4,127 bases of DNA. It comes from a virus (lineage: Duplodnaviria; Heunggongvirae; Uroviricota; Caudoviricetes). Shown piece after piece: positions 72-4,127 of the stretch. The notes beneath the pieces were generated by a model. It saw only the letters and a list, made by a program, of their open reading frames with translations, was not told the origin of the DNA and made no database searches. Position numbers and translations under genes: made by a program. Within the stretch, counting starts at the first letter, position 1, and each line of letters starts with the position of its first letter. The stretch is from the IMG/VR virus record IMGVR_UViG_2698536471_000014, one strand, 5' to 3'.

Positions 72-100
72 CCTGTTTACCTCTTTCTCAGGGAGTTGAG

Positions 101-125
101 TCTCCTGGATTTCCGGGGCGGTTCA
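101..125 (-). repeat. 25-bp terminal inverted repeat (IRL-type) of the IS3-family element
   Basis: Reverse complement of 101-125 is TGAACCGCCCCGGAAATCCAGGAGA; identical at 21 of 25 positions to the plus-strand sequence at 4103-4127. Confidence 0.75.
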
Positions 126-947
126 CTGGCGGATGATCCTGCCGTTCGGGCCGTGTTCCGCAATGAGGCAGTGATCCGTCGTGCTGGTGGCGTGGAATGT
201 CTTGAAAGCTGGTTACTTCGTGAAAAAGGCTGCCAGTGGCCTCATTCCGACTGGCACAGCGAGAACATGACAACAATGCGACACGCTCCGGGCGCAATCC
301 GTCTGTGCTGGCACTGCGATAACCAGCTGCGCGATCAGTTCACGGAACGGCTGGAATCAATGGCAACGGATAACTGTGCCCGCTGGGTGTTGTCTGTTGT
401 GCGTCGGGATCTCGGTTTTGATGACAGTCATGTTGTGACAATGCCGGAACTGTGCTGGTGGCTGATTCGTAATGATCTGGCGGATGCCTTACCGGAAAGT
501 GCAGCCCGTAAGGCACTGAGATTACCGAAGCCTGTTGTGCCGTCTGTTACCCGGGAAAGTGACCTTGTGCCTTCGGTTCCTGCCACCAGCATCATCCAGG
601 ATAAGGCGAAAAAGGTGCTGGCGCTGAAAGTGGATCCGGAGTCGCCGGAGTCTTTTATGTTACGCCCAAAACGTCACCGCTGGGTTAATGAAAAGTACAC
701 GCGCTGGGTTAAGACGCAGCCGTGCGCATGTTGTGGAAAACCTGCTGATGATCCCCACCACCTGATAGGCCACGGTCAGGGGGGAATGGGTACAAAAGCG
801 CATGACCTTTTTGTGTTGCCTTTGTGCAGAAAGCATCACGACGAGCTGCATGCGGATACCGTGGCATTTGAAGAGAAGTATGGCTCCCAGCTGGAGCTGA
901 TATTTCGTTTTATCGATCGTGCGCTGGCAATAGGCGTACTGGCGTAA
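126..947 (+). pseudogene. DUF968 / YdfU-like prophage protein, 5'-truncated by the IS insertion (native part 126-947; probable pseudogene or N-terminally deleted product)
   Basis: The tool ORF 96-947 has no in-frame stop upstream to position 1, so the frame runs straight through the IS terminus at 125; the tool 'start' at 96 is a TTG inside the IS inverted repeat. First ATG in the native part is at 267 with only a weak SD. C-terminus carries a Cys/His cluster (CACCGKPADDPHH...CRKHHDELH). Stop TAA at 945-947. DUF968/YdfU naming is by recollection and synteny (immediately upstream of Q). Confidence 0.6.
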
Positions 948-960
948 GTGGAGAACGAGC

Positions 961-1713
961 ATGAACCTTGAAGCCTTACCAAAATATTACTCCCCAAAAT
1001 CTCCAAAATTGAGTGATGACGCACCGGCGACAGGCTCTGGTGGTTTAACGATTACGGATGTGATGGCTGCGCAGGGGATGGTGCAGTCGAAAGCACCGCT
1101 TGGGTTTGCCTTATTCCTGGCAAAAGTTGGTGTTCAGGATCCTCAGTTTGCGATTGAAGGTCTGCTCAATTACGCGATGGCACTGGATAACCCGACATTG
1201 AATAAATTGAGTGAAGAAACCCGGCTACAGATTATTCCTTACCTTGTGAATTTTGCCTTTGCTGATTATTCCAGGTCTGCGGCAAGTAAGGCTCGTTGTG
1301 AGCATTGTGCTGGTACTGGATTTCATAATGTATTGCGCGAAGTGGTGAAACACTCCAGAAGCGGGGAATCTGTTATCAAAGAAGAGTGGGTGAAGGAACT
1401 ATGTCAGCATTGCCATGGTAAGGGAGAAGTCAGCACAGCGTGCAGAGGGTGTAAGGGTAAAGGTATTGTCTTGGATGAAAAAAGGACCCGGCTTTATGGC
1501 ACACCTGTTTATAAGATTTGTGGGCGTTGCAATGGAAAACGGTTTAGTCGTTTACCAACCACACTGGCGCGGCATCATGTCCAGAAGCTGGTACCGGACC
1601 TGAGTGATTATCAGTGGTATAAAGGATATGCAAATGTCATTGATAAACTGGTTACAAAGTGCTGGCAGGAGGAATCTTACGCTGAAGCACAATTGAGAAA
1701 GGTGACGAGATAA
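961..1713 (+). CDS. quuQ: Late-gene antiterminator Q (lambda-Q family, QuuQ-like), 250 aa
   Basis: GGAGAA SD 5-6 nt upstream of ATG 961. Protein shows blocks recalled from lambda Q (SPKSP...SD...TDVMAA, FA(F/Y)ADY(S/C)RSA, CGRC, Q/KC..EES) and four CxxCxG motifs (CEHCAGTG, CQHCHGKG, CRGCKGKG, CGRCNGKR). Lies directly upstream of a PR'-like promoter. Stop TAA at 1711-1713. Confidence 0.85.
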   Translation: MNLEALPKYYSPKSPKLSDDAPATGSGGLTITDVMAAQGMVQSKAPLGFALFLAKVGVQDPQFAIEGLLNYAMALDNPTLNKLSEETRLQIIPYLVNFAFADYSRSAASKARCEHCAGTGFHNVLREVVKHSRSGESVIKEEWVKELCQHCHGKGEVSTACRGCKGKGIVLDEKRTRLYGTPVYKICGRCNGKRFSRLPTTLARHHVQKLVPDLSDYQWYKGYANVIDKLVTKCWQEESYAEAQLRKVTR

Positions 1714-1744
1714 GTGATTTTCGCCGAAGATGGCGACGTGATGC

Positions 1745-1785
1745 TTGCATTTTTCAAAAAATATGGATAAAATTTTTTCAACGAT
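1745..1785 (+). promoter_or_regulatory. PR'-like sigma70 late promoter with promoter-proximal pause element (Q engagement / qut region)
   Basis: -35 TTGCAT (1745-1750), 17-nt spacer, -10 TAAAAT (1768-1773), then tttttcAACGATGGG (AACGAT at 1780-1785). This parallels the lambda PR' arrangement as I recall it (TAAATT-tgactc-AACGATGGG), where AACGAT is the -10-like sigma-dependent pause signal. Confidence 0.6.
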
Positions 1786-1819
1786 GGGCTTTGTATACCC
1801 GAAGTTAAGAAAAAGTAGA

Positions 1820-1843
1820 AAACCCGCTGATGAGCGGGTTTTT
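1820..1843 (+). terminator. Rho-independent terminator, tR'-like, ending a short PR' leader transcript
   Basis: Stem AAACCCGCT (1820-1828) / AGCGGGTTT (1833-1841) with loop GATG, followed by a T-run to 1843. About 60 nt downstream of the predicted start site. Confidence 0.7.
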
Positions 1844-2135
1844 GTGCTTTAAATAGGGTAATAGAGATGTTGAATCTCATTACGGGATTCATGTTAGTTT
1901 ACTTATTATTTATCGGGTGACTTTGTTTTTTGCCTGATGTTTAAAATGCTTTCTTCCAGTACAATGTCCATAGATACAATGAGTCTGCTTATTATATTAT
2001 TAGCAGAGCTATTAAGGTCAAAGTACAGCATAAGCTTTTAAAGCCAATCAACCAGTCATCAAGACAGACGGGTTTATTCATGAAAACTCTCCATGTTTGA
2101 TTCGATGGGGCTTGAAGTTAAAGCTTTAATATAGC

Positions 2136-2348
2136 TCATGAAAGGTAAACATTGGCAGCTGATGGTCCACGCAGACCATTTATCCGGCAAAATTCCACGC
2201 GTAATCCGGTGGTAATTTCTTCTGCATCGCGGAGATTGAGCGCTGAAACATGAAGCTGGACATCGATACGACCATCGGATGGGGTTATAAGACCTTTGCC
2301 GCTTTTGCCGTCAAAGGTTTTGAGAATTCCTGTCATTTTACGGGACAA
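2136..2348 (-). CDS. cspF: Cold-shock-domain protein, CspF/CspH-like (70 aa)
   Basis: Translation [27 protein letters not shown]...[13 protein letters not shown] has CspA-family length and architecture. Start is TTG (complement of 2346-2348) with AAGGA SD 6 nt upstream on the minus strand; the in-frame ATG four codons in is 18 nt from the SD. Lacks the aromatic RNP1 residues seen in CspA/CspB, as expected for CspF/CspH. Confidence 0.85.
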
Positions 2349-2453
2349 AAAAATTCCTTAATACTGATAACTTGGCGCACTATACACACGTTCCTGAAGA
2401 AAGCTATAGTTTTTTGATGGGGTTGAAGATGGCTGGATGTCTAAAATAAACAT

Positions 2454-2648
2454 TGCTTCATATGTTCAACTATGCGTTAATGATTGCGTCGGTTTGAAGA
2501 ACAGACGATATACGAAGTAGTTTACTAAAGCAGTTCTCATTTCAGGTGTTATTCACTTATTCCTTCTTTGAGTCTCTCCAATTAAGTACGAAGTCGTTTC
2601 TGTTATACAAGCCATTTATGCCGAAAGGCTCAAGTTAAGGAATGTAGA
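2454..2648 (+). promoter_or_regulatory. cspB promoter and long cold-shock 5'UTR (cold-box-like and upstream-box-like elements)
   Basis: -35 TTGCTT (2454-2459), 16-nt spacer, -10 GTTAAT (2476-2481), then CGGTTTGAAGAACAGAC, which parallels the cspA promoter and cold box as I recall them (CTTAAT...ACGGTTTGACGTACAGAC). GCCGAAAGGC about 30 nt before the start codon matches the cspA UTR motif. Leader of about 160 nt. Confidence 0.5.
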
Positions 2649-2864
2649 ATGTCAAATAAAATGACTGGTTTAGTAAAATGGTTTAACGCTGATAAAGGTT
2701 TTGGCTTTATTTCTCCTGTTGATGGTAGTAAAGATGTGTTTGTGCATTTTTCTGCGATTCAGAATGATAATTATCGAACCTTATTTGAAGGTCAAAAGGT
2801 TACCTTCTCTGTAGAGAGTGGTGCTAAAGGTCCTGCAGCAGCAAATGTCATAATTACTGATTAA
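2649..2864 (+). CDS. cspB: Major cold-shock protein CspB-like (71 aa)
   Basis: [53 protein letters not shown]...GPAAANV: canonical CspA-family sequence with RNP1 KGFGFI and RNP2 VFVHF. AAGGA SD 7 nt upstream of ATG 2649. Stop TAA at 2862-2864. Confidence 0.9.
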
Positions 2865-2975
2865 AATTCATAGTTTGTCTGTATACGATAACGAAGAAGG
2901 CTGATGCCTGAGTGGAGATACAGACAGAGTGGTGAATATTGGATCTCTTTAATAAAGAGTAAGGAGGTCCAATAC

Positions 2976-3011
2976 ATGAAACAATGGCCAGCATATTTGG
3001 CAATAACTTAA
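2976..3011 (+). CDS. 11-codon mini-ORF (MKQWPAYLAIT) behind a consensus Shine-Dalgarno; candidate small protein or leader peptide
   Basis: AAGGAGGT (2961-2968), the ideal anti-SD complement, lies 7 nt upstream of ATG 2976; stop TAA at 3009-3011. Support is the translation signal only, with no homology evidence. Confidence 0.2.
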   Translation: MKQWPAYLAIT

Positions 3012-3146
3012 TCAGGAAAAGTATGCTAACCATTGTGGTGAAGTGCAGGTTTGCTGCATGAATAGTTTTACAGCAGAAGCTAACTGCTGGCATAGCAAAA
3101 CAAAGTGCGTAAGTGGATGACTCCCACAAAAAGTACCACAATATTA

Positions 3147-3168
3147 AACCCGCTCAGGCGGGTTTTTT
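3147..3168 (+). terminator. Rho-independent terminator, potentially bidirectional, between the cspB unit and the minus-strand small ORF
   Basis: Stem AACCCGC (3147-3153) / GCGGGTT (3158-3164) with loop TCAG, followed by TTTTTT on the plus strand. On the minus strand the same hairpin is followed by TTTAATATT, a weaker U-tract. Confidence 0.7.
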
Positions 3169-3227
3169 ATTATCTGCTTTAAATATGTTATTAAAATATA
3201 AAAAATACTTGTTACGAATAAAATCAA

Positions 3228-3398
3228 TCAAGCTACAGCTTTAAGATTTGTCTGGAATACTTTGTTGCAATGAGGGCAGATCAAAAGGGCACCTTTTTGT
3301 ACTCTTGAAAAACTGTGTTCTGACTCTTGGGTGCAGTTTGGGCAGGAACATTTAACGAGATAATTACGGCGTGATTTTGAGTCTTTACGTTCTGACAT
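3228..3398 (-). CDS. Small Cys4 zinc-ribbon protein, 56 aa (alternative upstream ATG at 3449 would give the 73-aa tool ORF)
   Basis: MSERKDSKSRRNYLVKCSCPNCTQESEHSFSRVQKGALLICPHCNKVFQTNLKAVA has two CxxC pairs about 20 residues apart. The internal ATG (complement of 3396-3398) has an AGGAAAA SD about 7 nt upstream; the ATG at 3449 has no evident SD. It may correspond to a prophage-encoded small zinc-binding protein of the YnfU type, but that name is from uncertain recollection. Confidence 0.55.
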   Translation of the reverse strand: MSERKDSKSRRNYLVKCSCPNCTQESEHSFSRVQKGALLICPHCNKVFQTNLKAVA

Positions 3399-3616
3399 AG
3401 GCTTTTCCTGTATAAATGGCCGTATACAGTACACTAAATATGAAAACATATCTCGTATTATTATTTAATATATGATTTTCTTTTAAAATAATTACCCACA
3501 TTTTTAATGTGTCTGTTTTTTAGCGCCGTTGAGAACAACGTTTGCTATAAAAACTACCCCATAGACTCCGATCTTTTCAAACATATTGCACCATCTGTGT
3601 ACATCGGGGTGAGGAT

Positions 3617-3832
3617 ATGAAATCAATGGATAAGTTAACAACAGGTATCGCCTATGGCACATCGGCTGGTAATGCTGGTTTCTGGGCATTGCAGTTACTC
3701 GATAAAGTAACTCCGTCACAGTGGGCTGCAATCGGTGTGCTGGGTAGTCTGGTATTTGGCTTGCTGACGTACCTGACAAACCTTTATTTCAAGATTAAAG
3801 AAGACAAGCGTAAGGTTGCACGGGGAGAGTAA
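3617..3832 (+). CDS. essQ: Phage-21-type class II holin / pinholin (S21-like), dual-start antiholin and holin
   Basis: [71 protein letters not shown]: two hydrophobic segments and a basic C-terminus, closely resembling S21/EssD as recalled. GGGGTGAGGA SD upstream of ATG 3617; second in-frame ATG at 3626 (M1-K-S-M4 dual-start motif). Stop TAA at 3830-3832. Confidence 0.9.
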
Positions 3833-3836
3833 TTCA

Positions 3837-4102
3837 ATGACACAAAACTATGAACTGATTGTGAAAGGGATCCGCAATTTTGAGAATAAAGTTGCGGTAA
3901 CTGTAGCATTAAGGGACAAAAAACGCTTTGACGGTGAAATTTTTGACCTGGACATCTCGCTGGACCGTGTTGAAGGTGCCGCGCTGGAGTTTTATGAGGC
4001 AGCAGCCAGAAGGAGCATCAGACAGGTCTTCCTGGAAGTTGCAGCCGGGTTATGTGAAGGGGATGAGCAGTCGCCGGAAAAGCGCCCCGTAATTTTAGAG
4101 GC
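3837..4102 (+). pseudogene. Hypothetical prophage protein (YdfR-like by synteny), 3'-truncated by IS insertion at 4102/4103
   Basis: ATG 3837 lies 4 nt after the holin stop, with GGGGAGAG SD (translational coupling). Frame is open through 4102 and continues without a stop into the IS inverted repeat to the window end, so the native C-terminus is replaced. Not lysozyme-like. The YdfR assignment rests on position after the holin in Qin-like prophages, not on a verified alignment. Confidence 0.5.
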
Positions 4103-4127
4103 TGAACCGCCCCGGGTTTCCTGGAGA
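4103..4127 (-). mobile_element. Terminus (IRR-type inverted repeat) of a second IS3-family (IS629-like) element; body continues rightward beyond the window
   Basis: Plus strand 4103-4127 TGAACCGCCCCGGGTTTCCTGGAGA is a 21/25 match to the inverted repeat at 101-125 and matches my recollection of the IS629 right inverted repeat. Orientation (transposase on the minus strand further right) is inferred from the IRL/IRR variant, not observed. Confidence 0.7.

Follow-up and report, generated by a model that had tools for sequence, protein, structure and literature searches.

The window analyzed here is a 4,127-nucleotide stretch of Caudoviricetes DNA (IMG/VR record IMGVR_UViG_2698536471_000014), and the gene of interest, at 961 to 1713 on its plus strand, encodes a 250-amino-acid Q protein (window Q). 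We think it likely that window Q is a lambda-like Q antiterminator with two tandem zinc ribbons and that lambda Q, with its single ribbon, is the derivative. Judged from its sequence, the gene is a late-gene antiterminator of the Q-lambda family, of the YdfT/QuuQ and SfV-Q type, and would be expected to act in antitermination. As such it is no oddity; ydfT/quuQ is an already known and named gene, widespread in prophages and phages, of a well-studied family.

Four CxxCxG knuckles in a Q-lambda-family protein

Window Q matches the Pfam family Antiterm (PF03589, Q-lambda family) at 177 bits, against a cut-off of 26.7 (E 7.8e-53), and the lambda Q structure 7UBM at E 3e-38; no NCBIfam model reached its cut-off for the protein. 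BLASTP aligns it with lambda Q (207 amino acids) from end to end at 35% identity (E 9e-43). A sequence-only reading of this DNA had recognized a lambda-Q-type antiterminator, about 40 residues longer than lambda Q, from by-eye matches at the N terminus, the FA(F/Y)ADY..ARC..C.GTG block, and the C terminus; the homology is borne out, all of these blocks align, and the difference is 43 residues. Residues 1 to 44 align without a gap to lambda Q 1 to 44, the nozzle-forming segment, with G39 conserved, and the protein has a four-helix body with a helix-turn-helix (HTH) like that of solved lambda Q (4MO1, 7UBJ to 7UBN). A Cys4 zinc-ribbon arm, as found in the family, is indicated both by sequence alignment and by the fit of a model to lambda arms.

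Much closer relatives carry the same protein. In a 100%-identical genome, the RefSeq name of the gene is ydfT, "antitermination protein." Identity is 92% to K-12 b1559 ydfT ("putative antitermination protein Q," cryptic prophage Qin), about 97% to the Q proteins of Stx2c-converting phages, and 98% to Q of Shigella phage SfV. The K-12 YdfT/QuuQ and SfV proteins are also 250 amino acids long, have the same four knuckles, and differ from window Q by point substitutions only.

The knuckles are CxxCxG motifs, of which window Q has exactly four (CEHCAGTG at 113, CQHCHGKG at 148, CRGCKGKG at 161, and CGRCNGKR at 187), confirming the count made from the sequence by eye. They hold eight of the nine cysteines of the protein. 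From its composition one would expect 0.024 such motifs per protein, and four or more occurred in none of 200,000 shuffles. The features of the gene, all on the plus strand, are as follows.

961 to 1713, plus strand: Q-lambda-family antiterminator gene (ydfT/quuQ type), 250 amino acids; from the ORF (open reading frame) and its translation, PF03589, 7UBM, the RefSeq name, and K-12 b1559
961 to 1092, plus strand: residues 1 to 44, homologue of the torus-forming (nozzle) segment of lambda Q; from the gap-free alignment
1297 to 1320, plus strand: knuckle 1, C113-E-H-C116-A-G-T-G; from the motif, with C113, C116, G118, and G120 invariant
1321 to 1401, plus strand: predicted beta-hairpin, residues 121 to 147, between knuckles 1 and 2, length-variable in the family; from AlphaFold strands 121 to 131 and 137 to 147
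1402 to 1425, plus strand: knuckle 2, C148-Q-H-C151-H-G-K-G; from the motif and its conservation
1441 to 1464, plus strand: knuckle 3, C161-R-G-C164-K-G-K-G, predicted structural equivalent of lambda C118/C121; from Foldseek and the register check
1465 to 1518, plus strand: predicted strand-helix-strand of the lambda-type arm, residues 169 to 186; from AlphaFold (strand 169 to 171, helix 173 to 179, strand 184 to 186), aligning to lambda RAVDIAKTELWGRVVEKE
1519 to 1542, plus strand: knuckle 4, C187-G-R-C190-N-G-K-R, equivalent of lambda C144/C147; from alignment and Foldseek, with C187, C190, and G192 invariant

Among 25 homologues at 64 to 96% identity, no variation is seen in any of the eight motif cysteines or in the motif glycines, and none appears when 50%-identity cluster representatives are added, down to 30% identity (42 sequences in total). 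Such strict conservation of the knuckles points to a function, most simply metal binding, presumably of zinc. The distances between knuckles behave very differently from one another across 129 four-knuckle homologues: the spacing of knuckles 2 and 3 is 13 in all 129, that of knuckles 3 and 4 is 23 to 27, and that of knuckles 1 and 2 runs from 14 to 63. The hairpin between knuckles 1 and 2 is poorly conserved in both sequence and length. In four Q proteins of 269 amino acids (P0093, P0101, P0117, and P0120, from Kosakonia, Enterobacter, Citrobacter, and Atlantibacter), 17 extra hairpin residues lie between these two knuckles (e.g., ...KKVQYPDGKPPKWA...), and a similar segment is also present in more distant long forms, such as P0153.

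Pairing of the cysteines

The BLASTP alignment contains a single 48-residue gap in lambda Q, opposite residues 122 to 169, and this is the extra segment as judged by sequence. By structure it is instead approximately 113 to 160, made up of knuckle 1, the hairpin, and knuckle 2, so that four more invariant cysteines precede the lambda-type ribbon; the limits of about 130 to 185 proposed in the sequence-only reading were inaccurate. C161, C164, C187, and C190 align to lambda C118, C121, C144, and C147. Since the first lambda knuckle (RCRDCHGTG) can be aligned to both knuckle 1 and knuckle 3, sequence alone cannot settle how the cysteines pair.

Two AlphaFold models were made, one of the full-length protein and one of residues 100 to 200 on 42 sequences (predicted local distance difference test score [pLDDT], 83.7). 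Both place a long beta-hairpin (121 to 131 and 137 to 147) between knuckles 1 and 2, which brings these two knuckles together, and a strand-helix-strand of the lambda-arm kind (169 to 171, 173 to 179, and 184 to 186) between knuckles 3 and 4. In Foldseek, the domain model matched eight solved chains of lambda Q at 45 to 48% identity across 40 to 42 columns; four of these fits have a root-mean-square deviation of 1.5 to 1.8 Å, with 46 to 48% identity in 40 to 41 contiguous columns. In an exhaustive register check, that identity was reached only when residues 160 to 200 were set on lambda 117 to 157, whereas ungapped windows containing knuckle 1 reached at most 25% identity to lambda; in the model, therefore, knuckles 3 and 4 sit at the lambda zinc site.

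With good confidence, then, we read the arm as two tandem Cys4 zinc ribbons, with predicted pairing of knuckle 1 with 2 and of knuckle 3 with 4. Most likely, C161, C164, C187, and C190 would form the lambda-equivalent ribbon, and C113, C116, C148, and C151 an additional, N-proximal ribbon that clamps the base of the length-variable hairpin. This arrangement is favored over an interleaved one because of the position of the hairpin, the Foldseek register, the spacing of the knuckles, and a natural deletion in the homologue P0174, described below. On the sequence side, the variable spacing of knuckles 1 and 2 suits a hairpin looped out within a single ribbon. The sequence-only reading had proposed a duplicated or extended zinc-binding module relative to lambda Q, and structure prediction as a means of telling one zinc site from two; the predicted second ribbon supports the former, and two tandem ribbons are what the models favor.

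Several points weigh against this pairing. Its basis is the secondary structure, along with how long and how identical the Foldseek matches are, rather than Cys-Cys distances. The lambda-like fit of knuckles 3 and 4 is no independent evidence, since the training of AlphaFold included the lambda Q structure. The N-terminal flank of the first lambda knuckle fits knuckle 1 better than knuckle 3, and the insertion therefore cannot be placed by sequence alone. Knuckles 2 and 3, with their spacing of 13, are spaced as in anti-TRAP and give weak anti-TRAP matches, as would also be expected of an interleaved site.

The sequence-only reading also likened the repeats to the cysteine-rich region of DnaJ. 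At the level of motifs the claim stands: the knuckles are of the DnaJ type, with three exact CxxCxGxG motifs and a fourth, CGRCNGKR, that ends in R, not G; knuckle 3 is CxC in many homologues. The Pfam model DnaJ_CXXCXGXG (PF00684) scores 31.5 bits on window Q, just below its cut-off of 32.7, and is listed for homologues in precomputed database tables ("faint" where graded), so this likeness was already visible in public annotation. The predicted topology does not follow. In DnaJ/Hsp40 (1EXK, 1NLT) the sites are interleaved, 1 with 4 and 2 with 3, in a V-shaped domain, whereas the ribbons of window Q are predicted to be in tandem. For the J domain and the DnaJ C-terminal domains there was no Pfam or NCBIfam match in window Q, and DnaJ models reached 16 to 29 bits against cut-offs of 338 to 585. 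A DnaJ cysteine-rich domain in the strict sense was rejected given the score below the cut-off, the predicted tandem pairing, and the missing domain context.

One can still envision the four knuckles as a true DnaJ-type domain, in which knuckles 1 and 4 would make the lambda-equivalent site, while an inserted finger would bear a second one, formed by knuckles 2 and 3, at its tip. Sequence alignments that put the gap after knuckle 1 speak for such a fold, as do the weak anti-TRAP and DnaJ matches, but it is made less likely by the hairpin and the Foldseek register, by the way the knuckles are spaced, and by the natural P0174 deletion, and we regard it as improbable.

Anti-TRAP (RtpA; 2BX9, 3LCZ) offers a parallel to the single ribbons of the arm. 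It holds one zinc with two CxxCxGxG knuckles about 14 residues apart, and the shortest long-form Q proteins have a knuckle 1-2 spacing of 14. In sequence, each Q ribbon looks like one anti-TRAP-like unit. Window Q nonetheless falls far below the family cut-off (NF058604, 25.7 bits against 65, over residues 146 to 174 only), and it is without trimerization or TRAP-binding context. A profile of the module comprising knuckles 1 and 2 finds DnaJ (E 3e-5), UvrA zinc modules, and anti-TRAP (E 3e-4), always via the knuckles. Aligned by hhalign with the module of knuckles 3 and 4, it gives a probability of 93.5%, a score dominated by the motifs; at the sequence level, this fits an internal duplication.

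A duplication could also have left a vestige, so that only the lambda-type site binds zinc and the other four cysteines form disulfides or have neither metal nor a separate role. The poor conservation of the hairpin in sequence and length would suit a vestige, there are short forms that lack the module, and lambda Q, one of them, has full activity (PMC9388147). The extra four cysteines and their glycine partners are invariant, in the 42 sequences down to 30% identity and in the 129 long forms, which is unexpected for a vestige. Reliance on disulfides is unlikely in a cytoplasmic phage protein, and this too weighs against a single zinc. We consider such an arm very improbable.

Distribution in the family and origin of the single ribbon

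A search of 1.84 billion cluster representatives found 212 relatives. Of the full-length 50%-identity representatives in the alignment, four knuckles are present in 29 and the single, lambda-type ribbon in 8 to 9. The two-ribbon arm, as modeled here, would appear to be the prevalent form in the Q-lambda family, at about three quarters of the aligned diverse full-length representatives.

A body-only, neighbor-joining tree places lambda Q, along with its relatives, within the clade of four-knuckle forms in 100 of 100 bootstraps. The tree was built on 134 columns, with the root assumed to lie on the most divergent short forms, and this too tells against our overall explanation. A pair of sister proteins from metagenome assemblies carries the comparison further; their genes are the following.

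L003, 1501 to 2103, metagenome assembly: Q gene of P0174, the single-ribbon sister (200 amino acids)
L004, 1462 to 2271, metagenome assembly: Q gene of P0157, the long-form sister (269 amino acids)

Each is the exclusive sister of the other in 100 of 100 bootstraps, and they are about 85% identical save for one clean 67-residue deletion in P0174, which takes out everything from knuckle 1 through the hairpin to knuckle 2, so that knuckle 3 follows directly on the body. This deletion, together with the place of lambda Q within the four-knuckle clade, suggests that lambda Q has lost its first ribbon. With the rooting assumed, the single ribbon of lambda Q probably arose by loss, and lambda Q is probably a reduced form. 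The "expansion" relative to lambda Q described in the sequence-only reading would therefore need turning around: the extra module is real, and its direction of change is probably the reverse. Neither a second zinc site, nor a tandem two-ribbon arm, nor lambda Q as a reduced form was described in the literature searched, which misses most subscription journals.

The sister pair is also a natural experiment on the extra ribbon. Both loci keep a PR′-like promoter, a TAAT(G/C)ATGGG pause-like block, and a terminator, and the promoter spacers of the two are very similar, including TGAATAAAA(A/T)TG as in lambda. We considered whether the extra ribbon has a large part in choosing the DNA sequence and set the idea aside, since the likeness of the spacers in this single pair argues against it.

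Late-control cassette, prophage setting, and mode of action

Just downstream, the window Q gene is followed by a lambda-like cassette of promoter, pause element, and terminator. Its elements are as follows.

1745 to 1773, plus strand: PR′-like late promoter (TTGCAT at 1745 to 1750, 17-nucleotide spacer at 1751 to 1767, TAAAAT at 1768 to 1773); from alignment to lambda PR′ and K-12 Qin
1778 to 1788, plus strand: TCAACGATGGG, identical to the lambda block with the sigma-dependent pause element (AACGAT, 1780 to 1785); from alignments
1812 to 1850, plus strand: intrinsic terminator (tR′-like), stem CCCGCU/AGCGGG at 1823 to 1838 with an A-U pair extension and then a U-run; from the RNA fold and a terminator scan

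The sequence of the Q locus thus shows the late promoter, a presumptive Q-binding element (QBE), the pause element, and a terminator after the gene. The spacer at 1751 to 1767 corresponds to the lambda QBE region, a placement made by homology only, and it differs from lambda at several positions. The consensus promoter scan did not flag the PR′-like promoter, because the −35 hexamer TTGCAT matches at just 3 of 6 positions. K-12 Qin has the same promoter, pause, and terminator cassette, with a PR′ region nearly identical to that of the window. The sigma-dependent pause at lambda PR′ is well established. By analogy with lambda (PMC9388147), the TCAACGATGGG block would act as a pause site here. 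The RNA of 1812 to 1850 folds at −26.2 kcal/mol (z −5.05), and none of 200 shuffles was as stable. The scan placed a terminator-like site at 1819 to 1842 and reported it on the minus strand; the stem, with an A-run on one side and a T-run on the other, could terminate in both directions, on the minus strand ending transcripts from the cspF side.

The lambda Q mechanism is known from structures. The HTH of the body binds positions 1 to 4 of the QBE, the arm binds positions 11 to 13 and sigma region 4, and residues 110 to 112, 117, and 122 to 126 of the zinc ribbon touch the beta′ zinc-binding domain, after which residues 1 to 44 change their fold to form a torus within the RNA-exit channel (PMC9388147). 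Since window Q keeps residues 1 to 44, the body, and the lambda-type ribbon, we infer that it works in the same way. Its HTH body and zinc-ribbon arm would bind the QBE in the spacer of the PR′-like promoter and engage RNA polymerase during its pause at the conserved sigma-dependent element. The N-terminal 44 or so residues would then refold into a nozzle in the RNA-exit channel, and we imagine that the polymerase would read through the terminator at 1812 to 1850 toward the lysis genes. Residues 1 to 29 have a pLDDT below 50 in the AlphaFold model of free window Q, as would suit a segment that is disordered until loading.

The window represents the late-control region of an E. coli lambdoid prophage of the Qin type. 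Positions 126 to 4102 are found at 99.8 to 100% identity in many E. coli chromosomes by megablast, and at least 80% of the window is present in 1,378 of 5,426 complete genomes. The gene order in the 100%-identical genome is DUF968 protein, ydfT, cspF, cspB, ynfU, essQ (holin), and a YdfR-family gene, names with which the Pfam matches of the window ORFs are in line. The order in the K-12 cryptic prophage Qin is identical, and the Q genes of K-12 and SfV have the same neighbors (ydfU/DUF968, cspF, cspB, ynfU, and essQ). Two cold-shock-domain genes and the small zinc-ribbon gene ynfU thus lie between the Q-controlled terminator and the holin gene essQ (3617 to 3832); as in K-12 Qin, the three look like morons inserted into the late operon. 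From Pfam and the genome annotation, their ORFs are:

2136 to 2348, minus strand: cspF
2649 to 2864, plus strand: cspB
3228 to 3449, minus strand: ynfU

Unlike the K-12 and SfV segments, that of the window is flanked by insertion sequence (IS) ends. Positions 1 to 125 and 4103 to 4127 are termini of IS3-family elements (IS1203/IS629-like), and the genome matches are limited to 126 to 4102 because the prophage segment lies between them. The reverse complement of 1 to 71, in the left end, encodes MTKNTRFSPEVRQRAIRMVLESQ, and the last 25 bases of the window (TGAACCGCCCCGGGTTTCCTGGAGA) match the terminal repeat, read from 125 to 101, at 21 of 25 positions. The bases flanking the two IS ends did not match each other as a target-site duplication would. 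The left IS cuts off the 5′ end of the DUF968 gene (ydfU-type, HNH-like; window 96 to 947); in a related genome, the intact gene starts 168 bp upstream of window position 126, and the TTG start at 96, being within the IS end, is a purely mechanical ORF call.

The IS-bracketed prophage segment is probably cryptic in this genome, which counts against the mechanism as drawn here. One could go further and take the window gene for an inactive relic of a cryptic, IS-disrupted prophage. The two IS3-family ends around 126 to 4102, the truncated DUF968 gene upstream, the cold-shock genes between the terminator and the holin gene, and the location of the K-12 counterpart within Qin all suit a relic, but the ORF, promoter, pause element, and terminator are all intact, and the protein is 98% identical to Q of phage SfV. 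We are doubtful of a relic, which in any case concerns activity at this locus and not the identity of the protein.

Nothing here overturns the known biology of the Q-lambda family; the finding is real, and the architecture is ordinary. Structural and mechanistic work on the family has, however, all been done on lambda Q, with its one zinc ribbon, whereas the Q proteins that appear to have two include some from Shiga-toxin phages as well as those of Shigella phages that convert serotype. The extra ribbon adjoins the residues equivalent to the lambda contacts with the beta′ zinc-binding domain, and since it is inserted where lambda Q touches beta′, that interface must differ. This calls for caution in extrapolating from the lambda loading complex. 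We suggest, tentatively, that in most Q proteins of the family, including those of SfV and the Stx2c-converting phages, the second ribbon, with its hypervariable hairpin, might make a contact of its own, so that the loading complex would differ from the lambda structures. If it does contact polymerase, sigma region 4, NusA, or DNA, lambda Q would be a stripped-down outlier of its family and not the archetype.
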